DNA from: Rhynchopus sp. YZ270_cl-10
Lineage: Eukaryota
Direction: 5' to 3'
DNA: 64,000 nt
NCBI GenBank assembly: GCA_964035575.1
Contig: OZ037836.1
Coordinates: 2,046,001 to 2,110,000 of the forward strand
The notes under the pieces were generated by a model. The model ran no database searches. It saw only the letters and a program-made list of their open reading frames with translations, and was not told the origin of the DNA. Below are positions 12,895 to 57,182 of this stretch, in pieces. Position 1 is the stretch's first letter, and each line of letters starts with the position of its first letter. Position numbers and translations under genes: made by a program.

Positions 12895-14157
12895 ATGGAC
12901 GTAACCATCAAGGGGTACGACGACAACTTGTTCATGATCGAGGTGGGTGTGGATGACACAACGGAGACGATGCGGCAGAAGGTGGCGTCTGCAGTGGGGT
13001 TGGCTGAGGACAGCTTCCACATGGGCTTCGGAGGGAAGGACGAAGGAGAGGACATCACGCAGCTGAGTGCTGGAGACACAATCATCCTCACGAAAACTAC
13101 GAAGTACGCAGCCCGAGCAGAGCTTCACGCGTTGGGTGAGACGGACATCACTGCAGAGCGGTTGGAGGACGTGGAGGATCCTGAGGTGGCGTGTTTGCTT
13201 CTGCAGGCGGAGGTTGCGACTGTCATTCCGGATAAGTTCTTGTCGGGTTCATCGTTTACGAGACTTGATCTGAGTGCTGTGTCGTGTGTGACGGAGGTTG
13301 GTGATAGCTTTTTGTACAGTTGTACAACGTTGACAAGCATCGACCTGTCTGGGTTGAGCAACGTGACGCGCATCGGTAGCTACTTTCTCTCCGACTGCAA
13401 AGGCTTAACCACTCTGGATCTTCCGCCACTCAGCAACTTGACGCACATCGGTGAAGGCTTTCTTGACGGCTGCAAAGGCTTAACCACTGTGGATCTTTCG
13501 CCATTCAGCAACTTGACCCGCATCGAGAGCTACTTTCTCTACGACTGCGAAGGCTTAACTACTCTGGATCTTTCACCACTCGGCAACGTGACAGAAATCG
13601 GTAAAGGCTTTCTCGACGGCTGCGATGGCTTAACCGCTCTGGATCTTAGACCACTCAGCAACGTGACAGAAATCGATGGCAACTTTCTCAGAGGCTGCGA
13701 AGGTTTAACCACTCTGGATCTTTCTCCACTCAGCAACTTGACGCGCATCACTAGAGGCTTTCTCGAGGGCTGCGAAGGCTTAACCACTCTGGATATTTCT
13801 CCACTCAGCAACTTGACGCACATCGATAGCTACTTTCTCACCGTCTGCAAGGGCTTAACCACTCTGGATCTTTCTCCACTCAGCAACTTGACAGAAATCA
13901 GTGAAGGCTTTCTCGACGAGTGCGAAGGCTTAACCACTCTGGATCTTTCTCCACTCAGCAGGGTTACGTTTGTTGGTTGCCAATTTCTTACGAACTGCAC
14001 TTCGTTGAAGAGTATTTACCTTACCGGCTGCAGCAGTGCTGTGTCAGACGCAGTAGTGAAGTGCGAGCTGAAGAAGCTTGTGGTTGAAGCATGTCCGAAA
14101 CGCAGCAGAGACGAATCCCCCGAGCAAGCACACAAACGGCAGAGACACGCACAATGA
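12895..14157 (+). CDS. UBL-LRR protein, family A (NLS-like tail), 420 aa
   Basis: N-terminal ubiquitin-like MDVTIKGYDDNLFMIEVGVDDT...; 25-aa LRRs LTTLDLSPLSN(L/V)TxIxxxFLxxCxG; C-terminus PKRSRDESPEQAHKRQRHAQ. Confidence 0.93.
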   Translation: MDVTIKGYDDNLFMIEVGVDDTTETMRQKVASAVGLAEDSFHMGFGGKDEGEDITQLSAGDTIILTKTTKYAARAELHALGETDITAERLEDVEDPEVACLLLQAEVATVIPDKFLSGSSFTRLDLSAVSCVTEVGDSFLYSCTTLTSIDLSGLSNVTRIGSYFLSDCKGLTTLDLPPLSNLTHIGEGFLDGCKGLTTVDLSPFSNLTRIESYFLYDCEGLTTLDLSPLGNVTEIGKGFLDGCDGLTALDLRPLSNVTEIDGNFLRGCEGLTTLDLSPLSNLTRITRGFLEGCEGLTTLDISPLSNLTHIDSYFLTVCKGLTTLDLSPLSNLTEISEGFLDECEGLTTLDLSPLSRVTFVGCQFLTNCTSLKSIYLTGCSSAVSDAVVKCELKKLVVEACPKRSRDESPEQAHKRQRHAQ

Positions 14158-15186
14158 CGATGAGGTGTGCTGCATAACGGGCTTCCTCAAGTCGCTCTTC
14201 CAACCAAAGCAGACATGGTGGCAGTTTAGTGAGGACACATCAGTTGGCAAATGTTTGTTTAATGTTTATGAGTGTAGCATCGGTTTGTAATGTGGTCCAC
14301 ATTTTTGTGGGAATTGTCAAGATCTTGATCACAAAGATGAAGATTTGGGCTGTGTGGAATGTTTGTCTTCTTTGCCTTGTCGGGTGTGTGCACTGTATGT
14401 GAAACAACTGTGGCTCTGCAGGTACATGCTCTGATGTCTATTCAGTGTGGTGTGTTGTGGTTTTGTTATGTTCTGTTATGTTTAGTTCATTTTAAAGCAT
14501 ATTCGGGGATGGTACATGGGGACAGGAAGGGTAACAAACAAGGTGGTCGCCCTTCTTTATTAGCACGCCATATGTTAGGGTTTTGTGCATTGCTTCTTTC
14601 ATTTGTTTTGCAGTCAGGCCAGCTTACTGCATGGGAGGGCTGCCACATCCAGGGGTGAGATGTGCTGCCTGTAAATGACTTCTCGAGTCCGCGAAGTGCA
14701 TTCATTTTGCAACTCCAACAGATGCAGAAGGAATGTGGGGGAGGACCTGGCACAGCACATGAACATCTGTACAGATGCTGTCACAAATATTCGGACAAAA
14801 ACAAAACAAAAGACCTCTCCCCTTGCAACTGTTTGTTGTCTCTTGCGTACTCTTACCCCCAATTGAAAACACCTGCACAAAACAGAGAGACACAAAACCA
14901 TGGAAATATGTGTGAAGAGCTTTGACGGAGAGAAGTACACAGTCGAGGTGGGTGTGGATGATACAACTGCGGACATACGGCGGAAGGTGGCGTCTGCAGC
15001 AGAGTTGTGCGAAGACGGCTTTGACATGAGCTTCGGAGAGAAGCTGCTGGCCGAAGGAGACGACACGACGCAGCTGAGTGCTGGGGACACAGTTGTGCTG
15101 ACGAAGACGAAGTCGCAGAAGGACGACGCCATTGCAGCTCTTCGTGACTTGGGTGAGACAAGGCTGACGTCAGAGAGGTTCGAAGG

Positions 15187-15253
15187 TGGGGTTTTACCGA
15201 GCACCTCCACGAGGTGACCCCGGGCAACGCAGTGGACTGCGGCAAAGACTCGG
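15187..15253 (+). ncRNA. Putative HDV-like self-cleaving ribozyme
   Basis: Manual fold: P1 15187-15193/15216-15222; P2 15197-15202/15247-15253 (bulged A); P3 ACC/GGU; L3 UCCACGA; P1.1 CC/GG; P4 CGCAG-UGGA-CUGCG; J4/2 GCAAA with candidate catalytic C15243. Confidence 0.8.
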
Positions 15254-17931
15254 AACAAGAAGAAAAAGAAGAACAACATCTGAAGTGCCTCATGGAATAC
15301 GAGGACCGCTAACTTCGCGACATGGTAGCTTTTTACGTGCTAGCCGAAGCCTGAACCCAAGACCTCCCTAGTAGGGGGGGCGCGTGATCACTCAGCAGTC
15401 AAACAACAACATTTGAAAGACCTCATGGAATACGAGGACCGCTAACTTCGACGACATGGTAGCTTTTACGTGCAAGCCGAAGCATGAACCTAAGACCTCC
15501 CTAGTAGGGGGGGCGCGTGATCACTCAGCAGACAAACTACATCATCAGAAATGCCTCATGGAATACGAGGACCGCTAACTTCGGCGACATGGTAGCTTTT
15601 ACGTGCAAGCCGAAGCCTGAACCTAAGACCTCCCTAGTAGGGGGGGCGCGTGATCACTCAGCAGTCAAACAACAACATCTGAAAGACCTCATGGAATACG
15701 AGGACCGCTAACTTCGACGACATGGTAGCTTTTACGTGCTAGCCGAAGCATGAACCTAAGACCTCCCTAGTAGGGGGGGCGCGTGATCACTCAGCAGACA
15801 AACTACAACATCTGAAAGACCTCATGGAATACGAGGACCGCTAACTTCGACGACATGGTAGCTTTTACGTGCAAGCCGAAGCATGAACCTAAGACCTCCC
15901 TAGTAGGGGGGGCGCGTGATCACTCAGCAGACAAACAACAACATCTGAAAGACCTCATGGAATACGAGGACCGCTAACTTCGACGACATGGTAGCTTTTA
16001 CGTGCTAGCCGAAGCATGAACCTAAGACCTCCCTAGTAGGGGGGGGCGCGTGATCACTCAGCAGACAAACAACAACATCTGAAAGACCTCATGGAATACG
16101 AGGACCGCTAACTTCGGCGACATGGTAGTTCTTTACGTGCAAGCCGAAGCATGAACCTAAGACCTCCCTAGTAGGGGGGGCGCGTGATCACTCAGCAGAC
16201 AAACAACAACATCTGAAAGACCTCATGGAATACGAGGACCGCTAACTTCGACGACATGGTAGCTTTTACGTGCTAGCCGAAGCATGAACCTAAGACCTCC
16301 CTAGTAGGGGGGGGCGCGTGATCACTCAGCAGACAAACAACAACATCTGAAAGACCTCATGGAATACGAGGACCGCTAACTTCGGCGACATGGTAGTTCT
16401 TTACGTGCAAGCCGAAGCATGAACCTAAGACCTCCCTAGTAGGGGGGGCGCGTGATCACTCAGCAGACAAACAACAACATCTGAAAGACCTCATGGAATA
16501 CGAGGACCGCTAACTTCGACGACATGGTAGCTTTTACGTGCTAGCCGAAGCATGAACCTAAGACCTCCCTAGTAGGGGGGGGCGCGTGATCACTCAGCAG
16601 ACAAACAACAACATCTGAAAGACCTCATGGAATACGAGGACCGCTAACTTCGACGACATGGTAGCTTTTACGTGCAAGCCGAAGCATGAACCTAAGACCT
16701 CCCTAGTAGGGGGGGCGCGTGATCACTCAGCAGACAAACTACATCAGAAATGCCTCATGGAATACGAGGACCGCTAACTTCGACGACATGGTAGCTTTTA
16801 CGTGCTAGCCGAAGCATGAACCTAAGACCTCCCTAGTAGGGGGGGGCGCGTGATCACTCAGCAGTCAAACAACAACATCTGAAAGACCTCATGGAATACG
16901 AGGACCGCTAACTTCGACGACATGGTAGCTTTTTTCGTGCAAGCCGAAGCATGAACCTAAGACCTCCCTAGTAGGGGGGGCGCGTGATCACTCAGCAGTC
17001 AAACAACAACATCTGAAAGACCTCATGGAATACGAGGACCGCTAACTTCGGCGACATGGTAGCTTTTTTCGTGCAAGCCGAAGCATGAACCTAAGACCTC
17101 CCTAGTAGGGGGGGCGCGTGATCACTCAGCAGTCAAACAACAACATCTGAAAGACCTCATGGAATACGAGGACCGCTAACTTCGGCGACATGGTAGCTTT
17201 TTTCGTGCAAGCCGAAGCATGAACCTAAGACCTCCCTAGTAGGGGGGGCGCGTGATCACTCAGCAGACAAACAACATCATCAGAAATGCCTCATGGAATA
17301 CGAGGACCGCTAACTTCGACTACATGGTAGTTCTTTACGTGCAAGCCGAAGCCTGAACCTAAGACCTCCCTAGTAGGGGGGGCGCGTGATCACTCAGCAG
17401 TCAAACAACAACATCTGAAAGACCTCATGGAATACGAGGACCGCTAACTTCGGCGACATGGTAGCTTTTACGTGCTAGCCGAAGCATGAACCTAAGACCT
17501 CCCTAGTAGGGGGGGCGCGTGATCACTCAGCAGACAAACTACAACATCAGAAACGATGCCCATGGAATATGAGGCAATTCTTAGTATTTTACCTTTTTCG
17601 TGTATTTCAATCTTGGTCAACGACATTCTTGTTTTTAAAACATTGTTTTTCAGTTACTATAGCGACGCGTAAGCCCAAATGGCTCTGTTGCTGTTCATTG
17701 CTTTTCCTTTTCAAGTTGATACAAGATTTTTTATTTTATTTTAAGTTGGTTCAGCCTCGCGTCAGCCCATTGGCGCTGTCGCTGAACCCAAACATTTTCC
17801 TTTTCTTTGTTCGGTTTTTGGCCCGTGAGACCCAGTGTTACTGCAATACTGGGTTCGCGAGCCTGAAGCCAGGGGTGGCTGCATTCCTTTTCGGACCGGG
17901 GTGCTCCATCCTATTTTTAAAAAACGTTTAC
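15188..17931 (+). mobile_element. Non-autonomous retroposon-like insertion with 5' HDV-like ribozyme and internal tandem array
   Basis: 20-bp TSD CGTCAGAGAGGTTCGAAGGT at 15168-15187 and 17932-17951; no TIR; no credible ORF. Confidence 0.85.
15272..17570. repeat. Tandem array, ~17 copies of a ~133-bp unit
   Basis: CTCATGGAATACGAGGACC recurs at 15289, 15422, 15555, 15688, 15821 ... 17424. Confidence 0.97.
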
Positions 17932-19178
17932 CGTCAGAGAGGTTCGAAGGTCTTGCAGATCCCAAGCTGGTTCATTTGTTTCTGCAGGCGGAGGTTGTTA
18001 CTGAGATCCCCGATGAATTATTGCGAGGGGTCGTGTTCTCAGAACTTGATCTCAGTGGTGTGTCAGGTGTTACCTGTGTAGGTTACAACTTCCTCCAATA
18101 CTGCCCTTCATTGCACACAGCTGACTTATCTGGGTGGAACAATGTGACGCGGGTTGGGCACTCTTTTCTCTCCATCTGCAGCACATTGCGAAGCCTTGAC
18201 TTGTCTGGGTGGAACACTGTGACGCACGTAGGAGACTTCTTTCTCTGCAACTGCACCTCATTGACCACACTGGATATTTCAGGGTGGAACAATGTGACGC
18301 ATGTTGGGACCTGTTTCCTCACCAAATGCACTTCATTGCAAACCCTTGACCTATCTGGGTTAACGACTGTTCAGCACATTGGGACAGGCTTCCTGTATGG
18401 ATGCAAAATACGTACAAGCAGCATCAACGTCACCGGATCGAGCAGTGTTGTGTCAGAATATGTGCAGAGTCGTAACCTCGTGGATAAAATCAAGCACCAA
18501 TGTGTGTGCATGTGAGGCATGTGCATCTTTCGAGAGGCTAGGTACTCATTGCGATGTTCAGAGAACGAATTTTACATTGCACGTTGCACTTTGCCCTTAC
18601 CAAAACTAACGTCGCTTTTGACCGTTCTTTTGCTTTCCCAAGCTTCAAAGGTTAAAAAGAACGAGCGAAGAATAAATCATAGCTGGTGATGTTTTATACC
18701 CGATTCTTTGCCTCCTCGCGTGCGTACAGTGCTGCAACCAAGCATGTTGTCGCAGCCAGTATTTTTGTGCACTATTTGGGTTGGACCCCTGTAGTCATGA
18801 TAAAAGCGATGACGCCATTGAGCGACTCATAGGCGCATGAGTGATAGACGTTGTCGCTGTGGTATCCCGCCTCGCAGAGGAAGGTGTTTTTGACACAGCA
18901 ACTTCGTGAGTTAGTATCGGTCTGTGAATCAAATTGAAAACGGCGTGTTTGCGCGTCATATCGCAGAGGATAGAGAAACTGAAAAGTATTGAAAATAACA
19001 GAAGTATGGTGCCAAGTTCACAAGGAACAGATAGTGGAGCACATCCTCTGTCCACATTACTATAACGAAGCTTTCAAAAACAAAACAAAAGACCTCTCCC
19101 CTTGTAACTGTTTGTTGTCTCTTGCGTACTCTCACCCCCAATTGAAAACACCTGCACAAAACAGAGAGACACAAAACC

Positions 19179-20105
19179 ATGGAAATATGTGTGAAGAGCT
19201 TTGACGGAGAGAAGTACACAGTCGAGGTGGGTGTGGATGATACAACTGCGGACATACGGCGGAAGGTGGCGACTGCAGCAGAGTTGTGCGAAGACGGCTT
19301 TGACATGAGCTTCGGAGAGAAGGTGCTGGCCGAAGGAGACTACATCACGCAGCTGAGTGCTGGGGACACAGTTGTGCTGACGAAGACGAAGTCGCAGAAG
19401 GACGACGCCATTGCAGCTCTTCGTGACTTGGGTGAGACAAGGCTGACGTCAGAGAGGTTCCAAGGTCTGAGAGATCCCAAGCTGGTTCATTTGTTTCTGC
19501 AGGCGGAAGTTGTGACTGAGATCCCCGATAAATTCTTGTCAGGTGGCACGTTCTCAGAACTTGATCTCAGTGGTGTGCCAGGTGTTACCTGTATAGGTTA
19601 CACCGTTTTCCAATTCTGCAGCGTATTGCACACCGCTGATTTATCTGGGTGGAGCAATGTGACGTACATTGGGATGTACTTCCTCTCCATCTGCAGCACA
19701 TTGCGAACCCTTGACTTGTCTGGGTGGAACAATGTGAGGCACGTAGGGGACTTCTTCCTCTGCAACTGCACCTCATTGACCACACTGGATATTTCTGGGT
19801 GGAACAGTGTGACGCGGGTTGGTGATTACTTTCTCTCCAACTGCACCTCATTGACCACGCTGGATATTTCTGGGTGGAACAATGTGACGCATGTTGGGAT
19901 ATGTTTCCTCACCAAATGTACTTCATTGCAAACCCTTGACTTATCTGGGTTGACGACTGTTCAGCACATTGAGGAAGGCTTCCTAAAAGGATGTAAAATA
20001 CCCACAAGCAGCATCAACGTCACGGGATCGAGCAGTGTTGTGTCAGAATATGTGCAGAGCCCTAACCTCGTGGACAAAATCAAGCACAAATGTGTGTGCA
20101 TGTGA
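19179..20105 (+). CDS. UBL-LRR-CaaX protein, family B, 308 aa
   Basis: MEICVKSFDGEKYTVEV UBL; 25-aa LRRs LTTLDISGWNNVTxxxxxFLxxCTS; ends KIKHKCVCM. Confidence 0.93.
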   Translation: MEICVKSFDGEKYTVEVGVDDTTADIRRKVATAAELCEDGFDMSFGEKVLAEGDYITQLSAGDTVVLTKTKSQKDDAIAALRDLGETRLTSERFQGLRDPKLVHLFLQAEVVTEIPDKFLSGGTFSELDLSGVPGVTCIGYTVFQFCSVLHTADLSGWSNVTYIGMYFLSICSTLRTLDLSGWNNVRHVGDFFLCNCTSLTTLDISGWNSVTRVGDYFLSNCTSLTTLDISGWNNVTHVGICFLTKCTSLQTLDLSGLTTVQHIEEGFLKGCKIPTSSINVTGSSSVVSEYVQSPNLVDKIKHKCVCM

Positions 20106-20245
20106 GGCATGTGCATCTTTCGAGAGGCTAGACGCTCATTGCGATGTTCAGAGAAGGACTTTTACATTGCACGTTGCACTTTGCCCTTACCAGAGCTAGC
20201 CTCGCTTTTGACCGTTCTTTTGCTTTCCGAACCCTCAAGGCTTAA

Positions 20246-22187: not shown

Positions 22188-23171
22188 ATGGAAATATGTG
22201 TGAAGAGCTTTGACGGAGAGAAGTACACAGTCGAGGTGGGTGTGGATGATACAACTGCGGACATACGGCGGAAGGTGGCGACTGCAGCAGAGTTGTGCGA
22301 AGACGGCTTTGACATGAGCTTCGGAGAGAAGGTGCTGGCCGAAGGAGACTACATCACGCAGCTGAGTGCTGGGGACGCAGTTGTGCTGACGAAGACGAAG
22401 TCGCAGAAGGACGACGCCATTGCAGCTCTTCGTGACTTGGGTGAGACAAGGCTGACGTCAGAGAGGCTCGAAGGTCTGAGAGATCCCAAGCTGGTTCATT
22501 TGTTTCTGCAGGCGGAGGTTGTTACTGAGATCCCTCGTAGATGCTTGTCAGGTCGCACGTTCTCAGAACTTGATCTCAGTGGTGTGCCAGGTGTGACTGC
22601 AATAGGCGACTACGTCCTCCAAAACTGCACCTCATTGCACACTGCTGACTTATCTGGGTGGAGCAATGTAGGACTCCTGAAGAGTTTCTTCCTCTCCAAA
22701 TGCACTGCCTTGCGCACCCTTGACTTGTCTGGGTGGAACAATGTGAGGCACGTAGGGGACTTCTTCCTCATGAACTGCACCTCATTGACCACACTGGATA
22801 TTTCCGGGTGGAACAGTGTGACGCGGGTTGGTGATTACTTTCTCTCCAACTGCACCTCATTGACGACGCTGGATATTTCTGGGTGGAACAATGTGACACG
22901 GGTTGATATGTACTTTCTCTACCACTGCACCTCATTGACCACACTGGATATTTCTGGGTGGAACAATGTGACGCATGTTGGGACCTGCTTCCTCTCCAAA
23001 TGCACTGCATTGCGAACACTTGACTTATCTGGGTTGACGACTGTTCAGCACATTGGGAAAGGCTTCCTAAAAGGATGCAAAATACCCACAAGCAGCATCA
23101 ACATCACCGGATCGAGCAGTGTTGTGTCAGACAAAATGGACAAAATCAAGCACAAATGTGTGTGCATGTGA
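22188..23171 (+). CDS. UBL-LRR-CaaX protein, family B, 327 aa
   Basis: Same architecture; short tail SDKMDKIKHKCVCM. Confidence 0.93.
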   Translation: MEICVKSFDGEKYTVEVGVDDTTADIRRKVATAAELCEDGFDMSFGEKVLAEGDYITQLSAGDAVVLTKTKSQKDDAIAALRDLGETRLTSERLEGLRDPKLVHLFLQAEVVTEIPRRCLSGRTFSELDLSGVPGVTAIGDYVLQNCTSLHTADLSGWSNVGLLKSFFLSKCTALRTLDLSGWNNVRHVGDFFLMNCTSLTTLDISGWNSVTRVGDYFLSNCTSLTTLDISGWNNVTRVDMYFLYHCTSLTTLDISGWNNVTHVGTCFLSKCTALRTLDLSGLTTVQHIGKGFLKGCKIPTSSINITGSSSVVSDKMDKIKHKCVCM

Positions 23172-24089: not shown

Positions 24090-25016
24090 ATGGAAATATG
24101 TGTGAAGAGCTTTGACGGAGAGAAGTGCACAGTCGAGGTGGGTGTGGATGATACAACTGCGGACATACGGCGGAAGGTGGCGTCTGCAGCAGAGTTGTGC
24201 GAAGACGGCTTTGACATGAGCTTCGGTGGGAAGCTGCTGGCCGAAGGAGACGACACGACGCAGCTGAGTGCTGGGGACACAGTTGTGCTGATGAAGACGA
24301 AGTCGCAGAAGGACGACGCCATTGCAGCTCTTCGTGACTTGGGTGAGACATGGCTGACGTCAGAGAGATTCGAAGGTCTGAGAGATCCCAAGCTGGTTCA
24401 TTTGTTTCTGCAGGCGGAGGTTGTTACTGAGATACCCTTCAACTGCTTGAGAGGTGCCACGTTCTCAGAACTTGATCTCAGTGGTGTGCCAGGTGTTACC
24501 TGTGTAGGTTTCGAATTCCTCACCCACTGCCCCTCATTGCACAGAGCTGATTTGTCTGGGTGGAACAATGTCACACTTATTTCAGGGTTCTTACTCTGCC
24601 ACTGCACCTCATTGCGCACTGTTGATTTATCTGGGTGGAGCAATGTGACACGCACTGGGAGTGCGTTCCTCAACGACTGCAGGGCATTGACCACACTGGA
24701 TATTTCAGGGTGGAACAATGTGACACGTGTTGATGACTGCTTCCTCATGAACTGCACCTCATTGACCACGCTGGATATTTCTGGGTGGAGAACTGTAAGG
24801 CACATAGGGAGCGACTTCCTCTACAACTGCAGCGCATTGAAAACCCTTGACTTATCTGGGTTGACGACTGTTCAGCACATTGGGAGAGACTTCCTAATAG
24901 GATGTAAAATACCCACAAGCAGCATCAACGTCACCGGATCGAGCAGTGTTGTGTCAGAATATGTACAGAACCCTAACCTCGTGGACAAAATCAAGCACAA
25001 ATGTGTGTGCATGTGA
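24090..25016 (+). CDS. UBL-LRR-CaaX protein, family B, 308 aa
   Basis: Same architecture with a divergent set of LRR variable segments. Confidence 0.93.
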   Translation: MEICVKSFDGEKCTVEVGVDDTTADIRRKVASAAELCEDGFDMSFGGKLLAEGDDTTQLSAGDTVVLMKTKSQKDDAIAALRDLGETWLTSERFEGLRDPKLVHLFLQAEVVTEIPFNCLRGATFSELDLSGVPGVTCVGFEFLTHCPSLHRADLSGWNNVTLISGFLLCHCTSLRTVDLSGWSNVTRTGSAFLNDCRALTTLDISGWNNVTRVDDCFLMNCTSLTTLDISGWRTVRHIGSDFLYNCSALKTLDLSGLTTVQHIGRDFLIGCKIPTSSINVTGSSSVVSEYVQNPNLVDKIKHKCVCM

Positions 25017-26676: not shown

Positions 26677-27585
26677 ATGGAAATATGTGTGAAGAGCTTT
26701 GACGGAGAGAAGTACACAGTCGAGGTGGGTGTGGATGATACAACTGCGGACATACGGCGGAAGGTGGCGTCTGCAGCAGAGTTGTGCGAAGACGGCTTTG
26801 ACATGAGCTTCGGTGGGAAGCTGCTGGCCGAAGGAGACGACACGACGCAGCTGAGTGCTGGGGACACAGTTGTGCTGATGAAGACGAAGTCGCAGAAGGA
26901 CGACGCCATTGCAGCTCTTCGTGACTTGGGTGAGACAAGGCTGACGTCAGAGAGGCTCGAAGGTCTGAGAGATCCCAAGCTGGTTCATTTGTTTCTGCAG
27001 GCGGAGGTTGTTACTGAGATCCCGTATGAATTCTTGTCACATGCCACGTTCTCAGAACTTGATCTCAGTGGTGTGTCAGGTGTGACTGCAATAGGCGACT
27101 GCGTCCTCCAAAGCTGCACCTCATTGCACACTGCTGACTTATCTGGGTGGAGCAATGTAGGACTCCTGAAGAGTTTCTTCCTCTCCAAATGCACTGCCTT
27201 GCGAACCCTTGACTTGTCTGGGTGGAACAATGTGACCCGGGTTGATATGTACTTTCTCTCCAACTGCACCTCGTTGACCACACTGGATATTTCTGGGTGG
27301 AACAATGTGACGCAGCTTGGGCACTGTTTTCTCGCCGGCTGCACTGCACTGCGAATACTTGACTTGTCTGGGTGGAACAATCTGACACAGGTTGATGACT
27401 ACTTTCTGTCCAACTGCAGCGCATTGCAAACACTTGACCTATCTGGATGGACGACTGTTCAGCACATTGGGAAACGCTTCCTAAAAGGATGCAACATACC
27501 CACAAGCAGCATCAACATCACCGGATCGAGCAGTGTTGTGTCAGACAAAATGGACAAAATCAAGCACAAATGTGTGTGCATGTGA
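26677..27585 (+). CDS. UBL-LRR-CaaX protein, family B, 302 aa
   Basis: Same architecture; ends KIKHKCVCM. Confidence 0.93.
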   Translation: MEICVKSFDGEKYTVEVGVDDTTADIRRKVASAAELCEDGFDMSFGGKLLAEGDDTTQLSAGDTVVLMKTKSQKDDAIAALRDLGETRLTSERLEGLRDPKLVHLFLQAEVVTEIPYEFLSHATFSELDLSGVSGVTAIGDCVLQSCTSLHTADLSGWSNVGLLKSFFLSKCTALRTLDLSGWNNVTRVDMYFLSNCTSLTTLDISGWNNVTQLGHCFLAGCTALRILDLSGWNNLTQVDDYFLSNCSALQTLDLSGWTTVQHIGKRFLKGCNIPTSSINITGSSSVVSDKMDKIKHKCVCM

Positions 27586-28503: not shown

Positions 28504-29505
28504 ATGGAAATATGTGTGAAGAGCTTTGACGGAGAGAAGTACACAGTCGAGGTGGGTGTGGATGATACAACTGCGGACATACGGCGGAAGGTGGCGACTG
28601 CAGCAGAGTTGTGCGAAGACGGCTTTGACATGAGCTTTGGAGAGAAGGTGCTGGCCGAAGGAGACGACATCACGCAGCTGAGTGCTGGGGACACAGTTGT
28701 GCTGACGAAGACGAAGTCGCAGAAGGACGACGCCATTGCAGCTCTTCGTGACTTGGGTGAGACAAGGCTGACGTCAGAGAGGTTCAACGGTCTGAGAGAT
28801 CCCAAGCTGGTTCATTTGTTTCTGCAGGCGGAGGTTGTTACTGAGATCCCGTATGAATTCTTGTCACATGCCACGTTCTCAGAACTTGATCTCAGTGGTG
28901 TGTCAGGTGTGACTGCAATAGGCGACTGCGTCCTCCAAAGCTGCACCTCATTGCACACTGCTGACTTATCTGGGTGGAGCAATGTGACACTCCTGAAGAG
29001 TTTCTTCCTCTCCAAATGCACTGCCTTGCGCACCCTTGACTTGTCTGGGTGGAAAAATGTGACGCGGGTTGATATGTACTTTCTCTCCCACTGCACCTCA
29101 TTGACCACACTGGATATTTCTGGGTGGCACAATGTGACGCAGCTTGGGCACTGTTTTCTCGCCGGCTGCACTGCACTGCGAACCCTTGACTTATCTGGGT
29201 GGAACAATGTGACGCAGGTTGATGACTACTTTCTGTCCAACTGCACCTCATTGACCACCTTGTTTATTTCTGGGTGGAACAATGTGACGCAGCTTGGTAA
29301 CTATTTTCTCCGCAACTGCAGCGCATTGCAAACCCCTGACCTATCTGGATGGACGACTGTTCAGCACATCGGGAAAGGCTTCCTAAAAGGATGCAACATA
29401 CCCACAAGCAGCATCAACGTCACCGGATCGAGCAGTGTTGTGTCAGAATATGTGCAGAGCCCTAACCTCGTGGACATAATCAAGCACCAATGTGTGTGCA
29501 TGTGA
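28504..29505 (+). CDS. UBL-LRR-CaaX protein, family B, 333 aa
   Basis: Same architecture; ends IIKHQCVCM. Confidence 0.92.
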   Translation: MEICVKSFDGEKYTVEVGVDDTTADIRRKVATAAELCEDGFDMSFGEKVLAEGDDITQLSAGDTVVLTKTKSQKDDAIAALRDLGETRLTSERFNGLRDPKLVHLFLQAEVVTEIPYEFLSHATFSELDLSGVSGVTAIGDCVLQSCTSLHTADLSGWSNVTLLKSFFLSKCTALRTLDLSGWKNVTRVDMYFLSHCTSLTTLDISGWHNVTQLGHCFLAGCTALRTLDLSGWNNVTQVDDYFLSNCTSLTTLFISGWNNVTQLGNYFLRNCSALQTPDLSGWTTVQHIGKGFLKGCNIPTSSINVTGSSSVVSEYVQSPNLVDIIKHQCVCM

Positions 29506-30873: not shown

Positions 30874-31097
30874 AAGGTAGGGAAGGCGTTCAGGGAGTCG
30901 TCCCTCCCTTTGGCAGCACCCTCGAGTACAAGGTAGGGAAGGCGTTCAGGGAGTCGTCCCTCCCTTTGGCAACACCCTCGAGTACAAGGTAGGGAAGGCG
31001 TTCAGGGAGTCGTCCCTCCCTTTGGCAGCACCCTCGAGTACAAGGTAGGGAAGGCGTTCAGGGAGTCGTCCCTCCCTTTGGCAACACCCTCGAGTAC
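30874..31097. repeat. Minisatellite, 4 x 56 bp
   Basis: AAGGTAGGGAAGGCGTTCAGGGAGTCGTCCCTCCCTTTGGCA(G/A)CACCCTCGAGTAC in tandem. Confidence 0.95.
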
Positions 31098-32498
31098 CAA
31101 AAGGGCAGCCTCAGATGCTCCAAAGACGTATGGCGACAAAGAAGGAAACAAACGAGGAGACAATTCATGAGCCGCACTGGCCCCGCAGAACCTCAGCCTG
31201 AGCGCTTTGCTGGAAGAAAGGCCTCCTTCGCATCTCGGACGTCCACGACAGAAGGAACTGCCACTCACCAGAGCAGGCTTGTATGGTCATGGCGAAGGCG
31301 CAAGCTCACTCTGTCAGCGCTAACGGGTTCTTACATGGGGGGGAGCTGCGAGGTGTGTGGGGAGGACCTGGCACAACACACGAACAGTGCCGTGCCTGCC
31401 CCTTCTCTTCCTCTCAAATGAAAAGTGTTTCTTTTGTTTTCTGTTTTCACTTCGAAATGCTGTTTTCACAAATATTCGGACACAAATTGAAACTGCGTTC
31501 CTACTTTTCCTTTTTATGTTTTTCCCCTACCCCCGCAAACAATGAAGCAACAAAGCAATAAAGACAAAAGGGAGAGGTTGTGGTGAAACGCACACACCTC
31601 GACCTGTCGGTGAAGTGTGGCTCTCCACTCCAACCCGCCCTGGATGAGAACATACAACAAAGGCAGGGAGTAGGGGTACGGTGTTCAATTTCCTTTTAGC
31701 ATTGCATGTAATCATGAAACAAAACAAAAGACCTCTCCCCTTGTAACTGTTTGTTGTCTCTTGCATACTCTTACCCCCAATTGAAAACACCTGCACAAAA
31801 CAGAGAGACAAAGCCATGGAAATATGTGTGGAGAGCTTTGACGGAGAGAAGTACACAGTCGAGGTGGGTGTGGATGATACAACTGCGGACATACGGCGGA
31901 AGGTGGCGACTGCAGCAGAGTTGTGCGAAGACGGCTTCGACATGAGCTTCGGAGAGAAGCTGCTGGCCGAAGGAGACTACATCACGCAGCTGAGTGCTGG
32001 GGACACAGTTGTGCTGACGAAGACGAAGTCGCAGAAGGACGACGCCATTGCAGCTCTTCGTGACTTGGGTGAGACGGCTGACGTCAGAGAGGTTCAAGTG
32101 TCTGAGAGATCCCAAGCTGGTTCATTTGTTTCTGCAGGCGGAGGTTGTTACTGAGATCCCCGATCAAATCTTGGCAGGTGGCACGTTCTCAGAACTTGAT
32201 CTCAGTGGTGTGCCAGGTGTGACTCAAATAGAAAGAGGTTTCCTCCAATGCTGCACCTCATTGCACACTGCTGACTTATCTGGGTGAGCAATGTGACACT
32301 CCTTAAGAGTTTCGTCCTCTTCAAATGCACTGCCTTGCGCACCCTTGACTTGTCTGGGTGGAACAATGTGAGGCACGTACGGGACTTCTTTCTCTGCAAC
32401 TGCACCTCGTTGACGACACTGGATATTTCAGGGTGGAACAATGTTACGCAGCTTGGTGATTACTTCCTCTACAACTGCACCTCATTGCCCACGCTGGA

Positions 32499-32590
32499 GG
32501 GGACAAAAACGTGAGGTGGCAGCCCCCCGGCATTTTTGCCCTGGCGTCCCCGGATATAATCTCTTTTTTGAGTGAACGAAGGCCACGCGT
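32499..32590 (+). ncRNA. Possible HDV-like ribozyme variant
   Basis: P1 GGGGAC/GUCCCC followed by GG; P2 GUGGC/GCCAC; P3 GCC/GGC; P4 CUC-U6-GAG; J4/2 C-GAA (C32577); L3 atypically extended by the hairpin GGCAUUUUUGCC. Confidence 0.5.
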
Positions 32591-33111
32591 GGGATGGTTG
32601 CATTGCACTTTTGCAAACCCGGGCACATGATACTGGAGGGTCCAAAGCAACTGGAGGAGGTGTATGCTGGGCTTTTTGTGCCCTCAGGGATTTAAGCGAC
32701 CCTGCGCCTACTTTACGACCATGCACAGCTTTTGCTTTTCTTTTCTTTGCTTTTCTTTGCTTTTTGTAGGTGCTAACCTGCGGCAGTGGTTTGCATCAGT
32801 TGGGTGTTCCACTCACCGCAGTTTAGAGAATTAGGAGATGCCAGTCATTCGTTCCTCCCATTGGAATGACTGGTGGTTTTATTGTTGTTTATTTCTTTTG
32901 ACGCTGCCAGAGTGCGGACCTTGAACTGGCTTATATACAACCTAGGCCACCAGCGGTGGTATACGGCCCCTGTTCACTTAGGTGTCGCTTCTTTGTTGGG
33001 TATAAGTCAGCAAATGGGATCAAGCCACTCTCTGGCACACCGTGGTGCCATCCTTCCCTTTTGCTGGTTTTTCTTTTTGCGGGGGTGGATCACGTTTTTC
33101 AAGGTTAATAT
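32499..33111 (+). mobile_element. Short retroposon-like insertion with possible 5' HDV-like ribozyme
   Basis: 18-bp TSD CTCATTGCCCACGCTGGA (32481-32498, 33112-33129); no TIR or credible ORF; starts GGGGAC. Confidence 0.8.
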
Positions 33112-34997
33112 CTCATTGCCCACGCTGGATATTTCTGGGTGGAACAATGTGACGCATGTTGGGACCTGCTTCCTCTCCAAATGCACTGCATTGCAAACCC
33201 TTGACTTATCTGGGTTGACGACTGTTCAGCACATTGGGAAACGCTTCCTAAAAGGATGTAAAATACCCACCAGCAGCATCAACATCACCGGATCGAGCAG
33301 TGTTGTGTCAGACAAAATGGACAAAATCAAGCACAAATGTGTGTGCATGTGAGGCATGTGCATCTTTCGAGAGGCTAGGCGCTCATTGCGATGTTCAGAG
33401 AACGAATTTTACATTGCACGTTGCACTTTGCCCATGCCAAAAATATGAAACTGGAGATGTTTTTTATGCACAGTTCTTTGCATCCTCGCGTGCGTACACT
33501 GATACAACCAAGCATGTTGTTGTTTTGTACTAAGTTAAGACAAATGCTTTGTGGTGGGAAATGATTCAAAGATTTGTTACCTCACGTTTTGAGAGTCAAC
33601 ATAGTGTTGTGAAAGAGAAAACCGACGCAGGAGCCTTTTATCGGAAACTGTTTTCTTCTCCACTAACACACACAAACACTGGACAGAAAAAGCTTTTTTC
33701 ACACGTTTTTTTTTCTGTTCTCATATGAATTTGCTGTTCTCCTTTTTTAACTCTCTGCTTTTCATTTTTTCAAAAATGGATTTAAGAATGCCTTGCCCTG
33801 GTCAGGACAAGGCGTTGCGAGCGGGAGGTACGCAATCGACGTGACGCATGCACATCTGAGGACGAACACTGTGGAGTTATAGTCTGGTCGCGATAGTTTT
33901 CGCGAACTTTCCTGCAGTCAACGCAGGGAAAGAATTAATCAACGATGTGATACAGGATATGGGTGGTTCAGTGATTCCACAGAACCGACACCATTCAACC
34001 AAAACCAAATCAATTAAAAAAGACAGAGTTTTTGAAGTAAGGAAAGAAAAACGTTACGATTTTATTCCCTTCCCCGTTTATTGCGCACTCACCTCATTTC
34101 TGAGAATTTTCTGTCTTGGTTGTGCATATTTTTTGCCTTCGGAATTTTCCTCGTTTCCGGATCATTTTTTTAAAAAGCATTTTCAAAGAAGTAAGAGTCG
34201 CCACCGTGACAGGCTTGGCGCTAACGAGCAGAGACCTTCCTCGCAGAGGAAGGTGTTTTGACACAGCAACTTCGTGAGTCAGTATCGGTCTGCGAATCAA
34301 ATTGAAAACGGCGTGTTTGCGCGTCATATCGAAGAGGATAGAGAAACTGAAAAGTCATGAAAATACAAAACTGAAGAACAGCCACTCTGCCTCAGCAGGG
34401 AAAGTGAACGAAAGGATGGTGGCCACGTTCGACACATTGCACATCCTCGGGTGTCCACACTAATACAACGAAGCTTTCAAAAAAACAAAACAAAAGACCT
34501 CTCGCCTTGTCACTGTTTGCTGTCTCTTGCACACCACACGCACACCTAAACACGAAGTTCTGCTTCCTTTCTCTGCAGACAAACACACATGTCTACTGAG
34601 CCTACACACTCGTTGAGTGCCTCACAAAACCTCAAATTACTTCTTCTTTGCTTTTTATTTGTTGTCTTCGCGCTTTATCATTGTTGTTGGGAAATAAAAC
34701 CTGGAACAGTATTCTTCCCAAAGTCTGAGGGAAACTCAATACGTCATTTTGCGAAGACTTCTTTCCTGTTGGTGCGTGGGGTGTCTGCAACGTCTTGTTA
34801 ATGTACTTCGTACATGTTCACACAATAGCCCCTCAACCGTGTGGTGACGTTTCTGCGTTCGTACGACCTCCACCAATGCTTTCCTCCACGCACTCCGTGC
34901 CTTCTTCCCACCATGATTGCCTCCTTCAGTGTTCTGATGTCCTCTCCTACTCCCACAACCCCACCACACAACAGAGCAACACAAAAAAGAAGGCAAA

Positions 34998-35888
34998 ATG
35001 GACGTAACCATCAAGGGGTACGACGACAACTTGTTCATGATCGAGGTGGGTGTGGATGACACAACGGAGACGATGCGGCAGAAGGTGGCGTCTGCAGTGG
35101 GGTTGGCTGAGGACAGCTTCCACATGGGCTTCGGAGGGAAGGACGAAGGAGAGGACATCACGCAGCTGAGTGCTGGAGACACAATCATCCTCACGAAAAC
35201 TAAGAAGTACGCAGCCCGAGCAGAGCTTCATGCGTTGGGTGAGACGGACATCACTGCAGAGCGGTTGGAGGAGGTGGATGATCCTGAGGTGGCGTGTTTG
35301 CTTCTGCAGGCGGAGGTTGCGACTGTCATTCCGGATGACTTCTTGTCGCGTTCATCGTTAACGAGACTTGATCTGAGTGCTGTGTCGTGTGTGACGGAGG
35401 TTGGTGATAGCTTTTTGTACAGTTGTACAACGTTGACAAGCATCGACCTGTCAGGGTTGAGCAATGTGACGCGCATCGGTGACTACTTTCTCTCCGACTG
35501 CAAAGGCTTAACCACTCTGGATCTTTCGCCACTCAGCAACTTGACGCGCATCGGTAGCAACTTTCTCTACGACTGCAAAGGTTTAACCACTCTGGATCTT
35601 TCAGCACTCAGCAACTTCACAGAAGTCGGTGACTACTTTCTCTACTACTGCGAAGGCTTAACCACTCTGGATCTTTCACCACTCAGCAGGGTTAAGGTTG
35701 TTGATTCGCACTTTCTTACGATCTGCACTTCGTTGAAGAGTATTTACCTTACCGGCTGCAGCAGTGCTGTGTCCGACGCAGTGAGGAATAACAAGAAGCT
35801 GAGCAAACTTGTGGTTGAAGCACGTCCGAAACGCAGCAGAGACGAATCCCCCCAACAAGCACACAAACGGCAGAGACACACACAATGA
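34998..35888 (+). CDS. UBL-LRR protein, family A, 296 aa
   Basis: Paralogue of 12895; tail RPKRSRDESPQQAHKRQRHTQ. Confidence 0.93.
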   Translation: MDVTIKGYDDNLFMIEVGVDDTTETMRQKVASAVGLAEDSFHMGFGGKDEGEDITQLSAGDTIILTKTKKYAARAELHALGETDITAERLEEVDDPEVACLLLQAEVATVIPDDFLSRSSLTRLDLSAVSCVTEVGDSFLYSCTTLTSIDLSGLSNVTRIGDYFLSDCKGLTTLDLSPLSNLTRIGSNFLYDCKGLTTLDLSALSNFTEVGDYFLYYCEGLTTLDLSPLSRVKVVDSHFLTICTSLKSIYLTGCSSAVSDAVRNNKKLSKLVVEARPKRSRDESPQQAHKRQRHTQ

Positions 35889-40166: not shown

Positions 40167-41207
40167 ATGGACGTAACCATCAAGGGGTACGACGACAACT
40201 TGTTCATGATCGAGGTGGGTGTGGATGACACAACGGAGACGATGCGGCAGAAGGTGGCGTCTGCAGTGGGGTTGGCTGAGGACAGCTTCCACATGGGCTT
40301 CGGAGGGAAGGACGAAGGAGAGGACATCACGCAGCTGAGTGCTGGAGACACAATCATCCTGACGCAAAGTATGAAGTTCGAAGCCACACGAGCACTTCAT
40401 GCGTTGGGTGAGTACATCACAGCAGAGAGGCTGAGGACTGTACAGGATCCTGAGGTGGCGTGTTTGCTTCTGCAGGCGGAGGTTGCGACTGTCATTCCGA
40501 ATGCATTCTTGTCGAGTCAATTCATTACGTTAACGAGACTTGATCTGAGCTCTGTGTCATGTGTGACGGAGGTTGGTGATAGGTTTCTGTACGATTGTAC
40601 AACGTTGACAAGCATCGACCTGTCTGGGTTGAGCAATGTGACGCGCATCGGTGGCTACTTTCTCTGTGGCTGCAAAGGTTTAACCACTCTGGATCTTTCA
40701 GCACTCAGCAACTTGACAGCAATCGGTGGAAACTTTCTCCACGATTGCAAAGGTTTAACCAGCCTGGATCTGTCACCACTCAGCAACGTGACAGAAATTA
40801 AGTCCTGTTTTCTTGCCGGTTGCAAAGGCTTAACCACTCTGGATCTTACACCACTCAGCAACTTGACAGAAATCAGTAGAAGGTTTATCTATGGCTGCAA
40901 AGGCTTATCCACTCTGGATCTGTCACCACTCACCAACGTGACAGGGATAAAGTGCGATTTTCTTGCCTACTGCAAAGGCTTAACCACTCTGGATCTTTCA
41001 CCACTCAGCAGGGTTAAGGTTGTTGATTCGCACTTTCTTACGAACTGCACTTCGTTGAAGAGTATTCACCTTACCGGCTGCAGCAGTGCTGTGTCCGACG
41101 CAGTAGTGAAGTGCGAGCTGAGCAAGCTTGTGGTTGAAGCACGTCCGAAACGCAGCAGAGACGAATCCCCCCAGCAAGCACACAAACGGCAGAGACACGC
41201 ACAATGA
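40167..41207 (+). CDS. UBL-LRR protein, family A, 346 aa
   Basis: Paralogue of 12895 with a divergent linker and LRR variable segments. Confidence 0.93.
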   Translation: MDVTIKGYDDNLFMIEVGVDDTTETMRQKVASAVGLAEDSFHMGFGGKDEGEDITQLSAGDTIILTQSMKFEATRALHALGEYITAERLRTVQDPEVACLLLQAEVATVIPNAFLSSQFITLTRLDLSSVSCVTEVGDRFLYDCTTLTSIDLSGLSNVTRIGGYFLCGCKGLTTLDLSALSNLTAIGGNFLHDCKGLTSLDLSPLSNVTEIKSCFLAGCKGLTTLDLTPLSNLTEISRRFIYGCKGLSTLDLSPLTNVTGIKCDFLAYCKGLTTLDLSPLSRVKVVDSHFLTNCTSLKSIHLTGCSSAVSDAVVKCELSKLVVEARPKRSRDESPQQAHKRQRHAQ

Positions 41208-53926: not shown

Positions 53927-55084
53927 ATGGAAATATGTGTGAAGAGCTTTGACGGAGAGAAGTACACAGTCGAGGTGGGTGTGGATGATACAACTGCGGA
54001 CATACGGCGGAAGGTGGCGACTGCAGCAGAGTTGTGCGAAGACGGCTTTGACATGAGCTTCGGAGAGAAGCTGCTGGCCGAAGGAGACGACACGACGCAG
54101 CTGAGTGCTGGGGACACAGTTGTGCTGACGAAGACGAAGTCGCAGAAGGACGACGCCATTGCAGCTCTTCGTGACTTGGGTGAGACAAGGCTGACGTCAG
54201 ACAGTTTCAACGGTCTGGAAGATCCCAAGCTGGTTCATATGTTTCTGCAGGCGGAGGTTGTTACTGAGATCCCTGATCAATTCTTGGAAGGTGGCACGTT
54301 CGAAGAACTTGATCTCAGTGGTGTGCCAGGTGTGACTCAAATAGAAGGAGGTTTCCTCCAATGCTGCACCTTATTGCACACTGCTGATTTATCTGGGTGG
54401 AGCAATGTGATGCGGGTTGATAATTTCTTTCTCTTCAACTGCACCTCATTGACCACACTGGATATTTCTGGGTGGCACAATGTAAGGCAAATAGGAGACG
54501 ACTTTCTCTCCTACTGCAGCGCATTGACAACACTGGATATTTCTGTGTTGAACAATGTGACGCAAATAGGAGACGATTTTTTCTCCAGCTGCAGCGCATT
54601 GCAAACCCTTGACTTGTCTGGGTGGAACAATGTGACGCGGGTTTATGAGCGCTTTCTCTTCAGCTGCACCTCACTGACCACACTGGATATTTCTGGGTGG
54701 AACAATGTGACGCAGCTTGGGCACTCTTTTCTCTCCAGCTGCAGCGCATTGCAAACCCTTGACTTGTCTGGGTGGAACAATGTAACGCGGGTTGATGATT
54801 TCTTTCTCTTCAACTGCACGTCATTGACCACACTGGATATTTCTGGGTGGAACAATGTGAGGCAAATAGGGAGGCACTTCCTCAAGAACTGCAGCGCATT
54901 GAAAACACTTGACCTATCTGGGTTGACGACTGTTCAGCACATTGGGAAAGACTTCCTAAAAGGATGCACAATACCCACAAGCAGCATCAACGTCACCGGA
55001 TCGAGCAGTGTTGTGTCAGAATATGTGCAGAGCCAGAGCGGTAGCCTCGTGGACGATACCAAGTGCAAATGTGTGTGCATGTGA
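53927..55084 (+). CDS. UBL-LRR-CaaX protein, family B, 385 aa
   Basis: ATG 53927 matches the paralogous start; longest family-B LRR set; ends TKCKCVCM. Confidence 0.93.
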   Translation: MEICVKSFDGEKYTVEVGVDDTTADIRRKVATAAELCEDGFDMSFGEKLLAEGDDTTQLSAGDTVVLTKTKSQKDDAIAALRDLGETRLTSDSFNGLEDPKLVHMFLQAEVVTEIPDQFLEGGTFEELDLSGVPGVTQIEGGFLQCCTLLHTADLSGWSNVMRVDNFFLFNCTSLTTLDISGWHNVRQIGDDFLSYCSALTTLDISVLNNVTQIGDDFFSSCSALQTLDLSGWNNVTRVYERFLFSCTSLTTLDISGWNNVTQLGHSFLSSCSALQTLDLSGWNNVTRVDDFFLFNCTSLTTLDISGWNNVRQIGRHFLKNCSALKTLDLSGLTTVQHIGKDFLKGCTIPTSSINVTGSSSVVSEYVQSQSGSLVDDTKCKCVCM

Positions 55085-56066
55085 GGCATGTGCATCTTTC
55101 GAGAGGCTAGGCGCTCATTGCGATGTTCAGAGAACGAATTTTACATTGCACGTTGCACTTTGCCCAAATATGATACTAGAGATATGTTTTTTTATGCACA
55201 GTTCTTTGCATCCTTGCGTGCGTACACTGATACAACCAAGCATGTTGTTGTTTTATACTAAGTTACGACAAATGCTTTGTCACAACACAGTTTTGTGGTG
55301 GGAAATGACTCTTTAATAAGCCAATTGTCTTTTTCTATGCAACATGTTAGACCGTTTGGTCTGGGAGGGTTTAGGATTCTTCTTTGTCTCAGTGATATGT
55401 TGAGCAATTACGAGAGGTGTTTGCCGTATTTTATTCGGACAAATACTTTGTGGTGGGAAATGATTAAAACATCTGAGACTTGTCGTTTATTCCCTTTCCC
55501 CTATTATTGTGCACTCACCTCATTTCTGTACTTCAGGCTAAGGGTTTTTTCCCCTTTTGACATCCTTTTCTGGACGTTTTGGGGGGTAGGAAAAAAGCGT
55601 ATGACGTGGGCAGCGTACCAACTAAACAAAAGATGAAAGGGGTTTTCATTATTTGTCACACAGAAGGTGTGTGAGGTCTGTTTTAGCGATTTTTTACCTC
55701 ACGTTTTTAGAATCAACGTAGTATGCACGTTACGATGTTATTGCCTTCCCCCTTTATTGTGCACTCGCCTCATTTCTGTACTTCAAGCAAAAGTGTTTTT
55801 TCCTTGTTGACATTAATTTCTGGGCGTGTTGAAGAGAACTATATAAAATGGAAGAATCCTGTTCATTCAAGTTCAAGGGGAAAACCTCGTGATTTTCCTC
55901 GCAACCGCGTGTGGTGACGTTGCTGCGTTCGTACGACCTCGACCAATGCTTTCCTCCACGCACTCCGTGCCTTCTTCCCACCATGATTGCCTCCTTCAGT
56001 GTTCTGATGTCCTCTCCTACTCCCACAACCCCACCACACAACAGAGCAACACAAAAGGACGACAAA

Positions 56067-57182
56067 ATGGACGTAACCATCAAGAGGTACGACGACAACT
56101 TGTTCATAATCGAGGTGGGTGTGGATGACACAACGGAGACGATGCGGCAGAAGGTGGCGTCTGCAGTGAGGTTGGCTGAGGACAGCTTCCACATGGGCTT
56201 CGGAGGGAAGGACGAAGGAGAGGACATCACGCAGCTGAGTGCTGGAGACACAATCATCCTCACGAAAACTGCTAAGTACGCAGCTCGAGCAGAGCTTCAT
56301 GCGTTGGGTGAGACGGACATCACTGCAGAGCGGTTGGAGGAGGTGGAGGATCCTGAGGTGGCGTGTTTGCTTCTGCAGGCGGAGGTTGCGACTGTCATTC
56401 CTGATGACTTCTTGTCGGGTTCATCATTAACGAGACTTGATCTGAGTGCTGTGTCGTGTGTGACGGAGGTTGGTGATAGGTTTCTGTACGATTGCACAAC
56501 GTTGACAAGCATCGACCTGTCAGGGTTGAGCAATGTGACGCGCATCGGTAGCTGCTTTCTCTCCGACTGCAAAGGCTTAACCACTCTGGATCTTTCGCCA
56601 CTCAGCAACTTGATGCGCATCGATAGCTCCTTTCTCTCCGACTGCAAAGGTTTAACCACTCTGGATCTTTCGCCACTCAGCAACTTGACAGAAATCGATG
56701 AAGGCTTTCTCTACTGCTGCAAAGGTTTAACCACTCTGGATCTTTCGCCACTCAGCAACTTGACGCGCATCGGTAGCTTCTTTCTCTACGACTGCAAAGG
56801 TTTAACCACTCTGGATCTTTCGCCACTCAGCAACTTGACAGAACTCGGTTACTACTTTCTCTCCGACTGCAAAGGTTTAACCACTCTGGATCTTTCGCCA
56901 CTCAGCAACGTGACAGAATTCGGTAACCACTTTCTCAGCAGCTGCAAAGGCTTAACCACTCTGGATCTTTCGCCACTCAGCAGGGTTAAGGTTGTTGGTT
57001 CGCACTTTCTTACGAACTGCACTTCGTTGAAGAGTATTCACCTTACCGGCTGCAGCAGTGCTGTGTCCGACGCAGTGAGGAACAACAAGAAGCTGAGCAA
57101 ACTTGTGGTTGAAGCACGTCCGAAACGCAGCAGAGACGAATCACCCCAGCAAGCACACAAACGGCAGAGACACGCACAATGA
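56067..57182 (+). CDS. UBL-LRR protein, family A, 371 aa
   Basis: ATG 56067 matches the paralogous start MDVTIK; NLS-like tail. Confidence 0.93.
   Translation: MDVTIKRYDDNLFIIEVGVDDTTETMRQKVASAVRLAEDSFHMGFGGKDEGEDITQLSAGDTIILTKTAKYAARAELHALGETDITAERLEEVEDPEVACLLLQAEVATVIPDDFLSGSSLTRLDLSAVSCVTEVGDRFLYDCTTLTSIDLSGLSNVTRIGSCFLSDCKGLTTLDLSPLSNLMRIDSSFLSDCKGLTTLDLSPLSNLTEIDEGFLYCCKGLTTLDLSPLSNLTRIGSFFLYDCKGLTTLDLSPLSNLTELGYYFLSDCKGLTTLDLSPLSNVTEFGNHFLSSCKGLTTLDLSPLSRVKVVGSHFLTNCTSLKSIHLTGCSSAVSDAVRNNKKLSKLVVEARPKRSRDESPQQAHKRQRHAQ

Follow-up and report, generated by a model that had tools for sequence, protein, structure and literature searches.

A diversifying array of ubiquitin-like, leucine-rich-repeat genes in Rhynchopus as a candidate intracellular recognition system

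There are 12 copies of a gene encoding an N-terminal ubiquitin-like (UBL) domain followed by leucine-rich repeats (LRRs) between positions 12895 and 57182 of a 64-kb stretch of Rhynchopus sp. YZ270_cl-10 DNA (contig OZ037836.1, positions 2,046,001 to 2,110,000), hereafter called the window. A six-frame scan and tblastn place all of them on the forward strand and reveal no introns. Four copies, each ending in KRSR-x8-KRQR, constitute family A, and eight, each ending in CVCM, constitute family B (Table 1). The original prediction counted 12 paralogues, which is correct for copies, but only 10 have intact open reading frames (ORFs), of 296 to 420 amino acids; the copy starting at 14900 is split by an insertion and that starting at 31816 is frameshifted. 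No LRR remnants beyond the twelve copies were found in the window, and there are no Rfam or tRNA matches.

Table 1. Gene copies of the array and the insertions found in two of them (window coordinates)
Feature	Position	Strand	Description
A1 (family A)	12895..14157	+	420 aa; UBL, N-cap, 10 Cys-anchored LRRs, tail with bipartite nuclear localisation signal (NLS)
14900 copy (family B)	14900..18515	+	Gene split by a 2,764-bp insertion; halves mutually in frame (283 aa); CVCM tail
Insertion in 14900 copy	15188..17931		Flanked by 20-bp direct repeats (15168-15187, 17932-17951)
B1 (family B)	19179..20105	+	308 aa; 5 LRRs; CVCM tail; copy used for the folded model
B2 (family B)	22188..23171	+	327 aa; 6 LRRs, forming a mosaic in which some repeats are B1-like and others B4/B5-like
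B3 (family B)	24090..25016	+	308 aa; 5 LRRs; CVCM tail
B4 (family B)	26677..27585	+	302 aa; 5 LRRs; CVCM tail
B5 (family B)	28504..29505	+	333 aa; 6 LRRs; CVCM tail
31816 copy (family B)	31816..33352	+	Pseudogene; two frameshifts (near 32075 and 32285) and a 631-bp insertion
Insertion in 31816 copy	32499..33111		Flanked by 18-bp direct repeats (32481-32498, 33112-33129)
A2 (family A)	34998..35888	+	296 aa; 5 LRRs; NLS tail
A3 (family A)	40167..41207	+	346 aa; 7 LRRs; NLS tail
B6 (family B)	53927..55084	+	385 aa; 8 LRRs; tail DDTKCKCVCM with upstream Cys, not polybasic
A4 (family A)	56067..57182	+	371 aa; 8 LRRs; NLS tail

Each intact gene carries between five and 10 Cys-anchored repeats in an exact 25-amino-acid register, and the Pfam family LRR_5 is above cut-off in all ten. 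In an AlphaFold (AF2) model of B1, built from a 61-row alignment with a mean predicted local distance difference test (pLDDT) score of 90, the repeat strands assigned by DSSP lie at +5 to +7 and at -9/-8 from the invariant Cys. The best structural match of residues 73-297 is the T. pallidum protein TpLRR (6MLX), with Z 18.2 and a root-mean-square deviation (rmsd) of 3.1 A. Both the profile and the two-strand solenoid fold are thus those of the variable, BspA-like 25-residue repeats that had been proposed. Because residues 73-297 align with TpLRR, the three helices that follow the UBL most likely form the LRR cap; a reading of helices 73-108 as an E3-adaptor motif was dropped, given their alignment with the TpLRR N-cap region. 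At E<=0.1 the intact copies gave no match to an F-box, as in F-box/LRR (FBXL) proteins, or to a BTB domain, and inspection of the 10 intact sequences, with no predictor run, revealed no evident signal peptide or transmembrane anchor.

The head of the same model, residues 1-71, superposes on ubiquitin with an rmsd of ~1.4 A (1.3-1.5) over ~70-72 residues and a Z of ~12, and the UBL and LRR together account for the whole model. A model of the isolated head was poor (pLDDT 71, best Z 6) and was set aside. The Pfam ubiquitin profile matches all six intact B copies, two of them above cut-off, and none of the four A copies at E<=0.1. This fold, together with the Pfam matches in family B, agrees with the suggestion of a beta-grasp N-terminal domain. 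The head had also been called nearly invariant, which is true within a family, but the A and B heads are only 53-54% identical.

Protein searches show that the window holds a small part of a family of several hundred members, which likely belong to one genome. There are 304 distinct full heads among the stored proteins; the head alone matches 422 clusters (120 listed), and a full-length query matches 231 (120 listed). Searching 1.84 billion representatives with a profile yielded 351 matches, of which the best 150 are family members and multi-ubiquitin proteins. This census rests on the 120-150 top matches listed in each search, and the tail counts given below therefore describe ranked lists rather than genome proportions. 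Among 20 divergent members examined there is a relative from Rhynchopus euleeides that has the UBL only, with a different C-terminus. A divergent start of the UBL-cap-LRR arrangement, P0314, lies on a 976-bp ENA contig; it may come from another organism, in which case the architecture would be older than this genome. Pattern searches for head relatives gave 310 matches in JGI metagenome contigs and 111 in IMG/VR, none confirmed in either set, and viral structure matches fit the LRR or ubiquitin separately.

The surface of the head departs strongly from that of ubiquitin. Across the 304 heads, the position of I44 is S, G or T in 87% (45, 32 and 10%, respectively), that of R42 is D, H or C in 75% (39, 26 and 10%), and that of V70 is T where filled, so that the Ile44-centred hydrophobic patch with a basic rim, as in Rad23/Dsk2-type shuttles, is missing. 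The median net charge is -9, compared with -2 for ubiquitin units from stored proteins, while D21, T22, K29, A33 and F41 are kept at 98-99% and the beta1-beta2 hairpin differs strongly between subfamilies. None of the 304 heads has GG after the last strand, as anticipated, which sets them apart from conjugatable UBLs and ubiquitin fusions. An FPR loop motif marks UBX-type domains; here the loop between strands 3 and 4 reads F-G-G/E. None of the 10 intact copies has a UBA or other ubiquitin-binding domain with a match at E<=0.1.

One possibility is that the head docks directly on Rpn1, Rpn10, Rpn13 or p97, in the manner of Rad23/Dsk2 or of UBX proteins, and delivers LRR-bound targets for degradation. 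The genes share with Rad23, Dsk2 and Ddi1 a non-cleavable N-terminal ubiquitin fold joined to a binding module, the Dsk2 UBL matches the head model with Z 12.1 and an rmsd of 1.3 A, and shuttle UBLs bind Rpn1 according to passages of PMC5028754. However, a fold match proves no function, and the passages of PMC7226360 on binding modes state that the Ile44 patch is the binding site of ubiquitin-like UBLs whereas divergent ones usually use the alpha/beta groove. Loss of the I44/R42/V70 surface and the strong acidity make Rad23-type proteasome docking unlikely, and these genes further differ from the three shuttles, as described in PMC5028754, in having no UBA and in numbering hundreds of paralogues where a shuttle is encoded by a single conserved gene. 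We therefore regard direct docking on the proteasome or p97 as improbable. The constant proteasome adaptor of the original prediction is its least supported part, since there is also no clear purifying selection on the UBL within families and the loop is not of FPR type. A precedent for a UBL with other habits is that of yeast Ddi1, which ignores Rpn10 and binds ubiquitin (passages of PMC5028754). Only this aspect of Ddi1 is used here; an analogy by charge, which would require an acidic Ddi1 sheet, was dropped because PMC4962041 describes that sheet as positively charged.

The C-terminal tails offer predicted addresses, a nuclear one and a membrane one, both read from sequence motifs. The classical bipartite NLS has the pattern KR-x10-12-basic cluster, which is present in all four A copies, and among the 46 NLS tails of the wider family the spacing is 10 in 35. 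All eight B copies end in a C-a-a-X box with X=Met, although the second a position is Cys rather than an aliphatic residue, and CVCM closes 66 of the 77 tails of its class family-wide. Both tail motifs that had been pointed out in the window are thus present as described, and the T. brucei farnesyltransferase prefers X=Met whereas X=Ser makes a poor substrate (sections of PMC3206815). The description of the B tails as polybasic is overstated, because K-I-K-H-K/Q precedes CVCM in only six of eight B copies and a net charge of at least +3 is found in only 16 of the 77 CVCM-type tails (an upstream Cys occurs in 29). Likewise, two address labels suffice for the window but not for the family, where the 304 heads divide into 77 with CVCM-type tails, 21 with CSVS, four with other Cys ends, 46 with an NLS and nine with a partial one, 42 of a B-box class and 105 with none.

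The B-box class was reached with the N-terminal part of P0274 as query, which matches 73 proteins, 56 of them with LRR_5. In most of these, two Cys/His clusters are followed by a long helical stretch and then by the family head and LRR. Among 10 such proteins tested, seven have a zf-B_box match and four have a weak ANCHR-like B-box upstream; the stretch after the B-box is judged to be a coiled coil by eye, from the sequence only. Single members exchange the binder, for SPRY in P0417 (which lacks the UBL) and for WD40 in P0424. TRIM and related proteins, such as TRIM5, TRIM21 and pyrin, have, leaving aside the RING, the layout of B-box, coiled coil and C-terminal binder, and the subfamily resembles them in its putative tandem B-box-like module, predicted coiled coil and exchangeable LRR, SPRY or WD40 binder. 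It is unlike them in that the UBL is placed before the binder, and the twelve window genes have no B-box. The TRIM-like character of this subfamily nevertheless adds weight to the idea of a surveillance role.

Within families the UBL DNA is 97-98.5% identical, in comparison with 79-81% for the inner repeats. Synonymous divergence in the LRR is also about tenfold that of the UBL, which suggests that recombination does much of the diversification. For example, the head and repeats 3-4 of B2 are nearest to B1, its repeats 1-2 are nearest to B4/B5, and its repeat 5 is nearest to repeat 3 of B5, each at 95-99%. Tails are exchanged as well: there are 56 tail changes on head trees, where the minimum is six and shuffled labels give a mean of 170. 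A single clade is rejected both for CVCM heads (p 1e-4 in the approximately unbiased test) and for NLS heads (2e-5) in a test of 55 of the 304 heads, wherein one NLS label (P0173) is a false positive of the regular expression and the members include three CVCM proteins that were chosen because their heads are A-like. Repeats and tails are therefore swapped between genes.

In 1,635 repeats taken from 302 proteins that lie elsewhere than in the window, variation is greatest at positions -9, -6, -5, -2 and -1 from the Cys, which in the B1 model occupy the short second strand and the residues immediately after it (DSSP). These five positions were chosen on the non-window repeats and then tested on the window DNA. 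In family A (22 repeats), the ratio of nonsynonymous to synonymous change (dN/dS, or omega) at the variable positions is 3.9 with dS left free (p 5e-4) and 2.3 by tree-free counting (p 0.008), and of 83 neutral simulations that included gene conversion only one came as high. The LRR framework, by contrast, is under purifying selection, with ratios of 0.68 in A and 0.32 in B, or 0.41 in B by counting (p 3e-8).

The location of this signal bears on the possibility that the head is a bait, that is, a ubiquitin mimic that deubiquitinases or ligases of a pathogen would attack, while the LRR serves as sensor or lock. Integrated decoys are known in plant NLRs, and both the weak overall constraint on the UBL and the divergence of its beta1-beta2 hairpin between subfamilies (omega between A and B is 0.77 in the hairpin and 0.49-0.56 in the rest of the UBL) are what such a bait might exhibit. 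However, the surfaces read by ubiquitin-binding enzymes, namely the I44 patch and the LRGG tail, are lost, no signalling domain is attached, and the selection signal resides in the LRR and not in the head. A bait function is accordingly very improbable.

Two copies of the array have been interrupted by insertions between direct repeats. Within the insertion in the 14900 copy, a 134-bp unit that has no Rfam match is repeated 17 times (15272-17574). The insertion starts with GT after ...GAAG and the second direct repeat ends in ...GAAG before GT, so clean splicing as a new intron is possible in principle. The 0.6-kb element of the 31816 copy (32481-33129, read-through EGTKT) also closes other family members, including the stored proteins P0060, P0073, P0120, P0222 and P0070. 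At least three other elements are inserted in many members as well, often at similar repeat positions, which suggests a target preference. The family heads of P0270 and P0279 continue by read-through into further ORFs, one for a reverse transcriptase and one containing OTU; these are probably retroelements inserted behind the UBL.

Such observations also fit a largely neutral or selfish expansion, in which a small intronless gene is amplified by unequal crossing-over and conversion and most copies are dispensable. Two of the 12 copies are broken, insertion-derived ends recur among the stored members, omega of the head is near 1 within families, and recombination, as judged from the tenfold synonymous divergence of the LRR, explains much of the variability. 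Against this stand the 10 intact ORFs, the constraint on the LRR framework, the precise retention of the tails, and the excess of dN over dS in the family A stripe, which survives the control for conversion. Thus, neutral expansion as the whole explanation seems distinctly unlikely.

The surroundings of the array include a gene with several tandem ubiquitin-like domains at 4683-6275 (Pfam ubiquitin, Rad60-SLD and YukD) and, between family copies, a U-box/RING gene at 52070-53320 that has CxxC zinc-finger-like repeats at its N-terminus and a linker rich in His and Gln. An ORF of ~2,400 amino acids at 42523-49836 contains a PTPSP repeat of 3.7 kb and probably a signal peptide, with no Pfam match in the parts tested. 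The cluster is flanked by long short-period satellites, (ACACAGT)x42 at 10961-11252 and (TGTATACTG)x49 at 61573-62014. Gene order on one strand has been described for Diplonema papillatum in part of PMC10161547. Read runs X1, X2 and X4 cover 30 of 30 bins and X5 covers 26 of 30, but this coverage includes intergenic DNA and says nothing for or against expression.

Large LRR families are known from other protists. Passages of PMC2843621 describe CaaX boxes on several Entamoeba BspA-like LRR proteins and a 911-member BspA family in Trichomonas, whose members lack a CaaX and are interpreted as surface proteins. The Rhynchopus family resembles these in its TpLRR/BspA-class repeats, its hundreds of paralogues and, as in several Entamoeba members, its CaaX, whereas a UBL head and NLS or B-box classes go unmentioned in those passages, and the repeats here have 25 residues. 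In Tetrahymena, species-specific LRR genes are shuffled by ectopic recombination, are associated with retroelements and have been proposed to serve an innate-immunity-like role (sections of PMC6564038). They are young and lineage-specific like the genes described here, but they have 90-bp repeat exons split by introns, and the word ubiquitin does not occur in the text of that article, whereas the Rhynchopus genes lack introns and combine 75-bp repeats with a UBL head and address tails. No description of a UBL-LRR or B-box-UBL-LRR family was found in the literature searched, with subscription papers and supplements outside its scope, and the main text of the D. papillatum genome paper contains neither ubiquitin nor BspA, although such a family might appear in its gene-family supplement. 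Expansions of protist LRR genes are known while this architecture is new in the sense of not having been found described, and the impression that it was unfamiliar has held within that scope.

A further comparison is with T. brucei Cul-G, for which PMC12816148 reports, in the part consulted, an association with flagellum-tied LRR proteins that lack an F-box and are likely client receptors. The likeness is one of description: both sets are euglenozoan LRR proteins without an F-box, there tied to ubiquitylation, but only three genes are involved in T. brucei and the passages describing them mention no UBL. As a precedent, Cul-G also counts in favour of the repertoire of binders proposed below. 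Perhaps, then, the Rhynchopus proteins are variable adaptors with a non-immune job, acting as client receptors of a cullin ligase or as scaffolds for endogenous signalling, feeding or life-cycle proteins, and a U-box gene and a multi-UBL gene do share the window with them. Yet an arms race accounts better than stable host clients for hundreds of copies that are young, mosaic, confined to a lineage and under diversifying selection, and the intact copies were seen above to have neither F-box nor BTB. This explanation is unlikely.

We tentatively favour, with a probability of roughly 0.45, a germline-diversified repertoire of intracellular binders, most likely facing the cytosol, drawn from a fast-turnover family that swaps repeats and tails, wherein each protein is addressed by its tail and the head docks a shared partner in the ubiquitin system. 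The variable LRR stripe would bind targets that keep changing, likely proteins of viruses, bacteria or transposons, and the tail would set the compartment, either the nucleus or, via farnesylation, a membrane. The acidic head would engage that partner by a face distinct from the I44 patch, with ubiquitylation or destruction of the target as a conceivable outcome, and the B-box class may add avidity.

Several observations weigh against this repertoire of binders. The variable sites of family B are not significantly above 1 (1.7 in 29 repeats, p 0.12; 1.35 by counting, p 0.32), although three single sites exceed that value; the excess of nonsynonymous change foreseen at variable LRR sites is thereby upheld for family A and not for family B. 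Multiple hits are frequent in the variable codons (27 of 60 in A), and these can inflate dN. The UBL is weakly constrained, with a within-family omega of 1.1-1.2 and an A versus B omega of 0.66 by counting or 0.89 by likelihood (not significant), so the invariance of the head reflects mostly youth or homogenisation. The 21 CSVS tails have X=Ser and would be poor substrates for the trypanosome enzyme. Only 43 of the 105 heads without a recognised tail keep the C-cap motif, which suggests that many of these members are probably broken. Finally, the Pfam scores for the B-box are mostly under cut-off, with a single protein above it, and the RING expected of a TRIM protein has no match at E<=0.05 in any of the 10 proteins.

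Nevertheless, the speed at which the family turns over and the signs of selection suggest that it is in conflict with viruses, intracellular bacteria or transposons. One may go further and picture an intracellular immune repertoire built by a protist, in which hundreds of germline-shuffled LRR binders are sorted by their tails to nucleus, membranes or cytosol, some of them clustered by B-boxes, and a single non-canonical ubiquitin-like handle leads to the destruction of viral, symbiont or transposon proteins. This fuller picture is speculative and somewhat unlikely as it stands. Little is settled about the means by which free-living protists detect viruses, intracellular bacteria and transposons, and the family provides a concrete candidate with a constant handle, a variable stripe and swappable tails. 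The acidic UBL without its I44 patch points to an undescribed docking mode, and small intronless solenoids of 25-residue repeats are a natural scaffold for intracellular binders. If the proposal is true, the family would be a convergent counterpart of the F-box, TRIM and NLR families found elsewhere.

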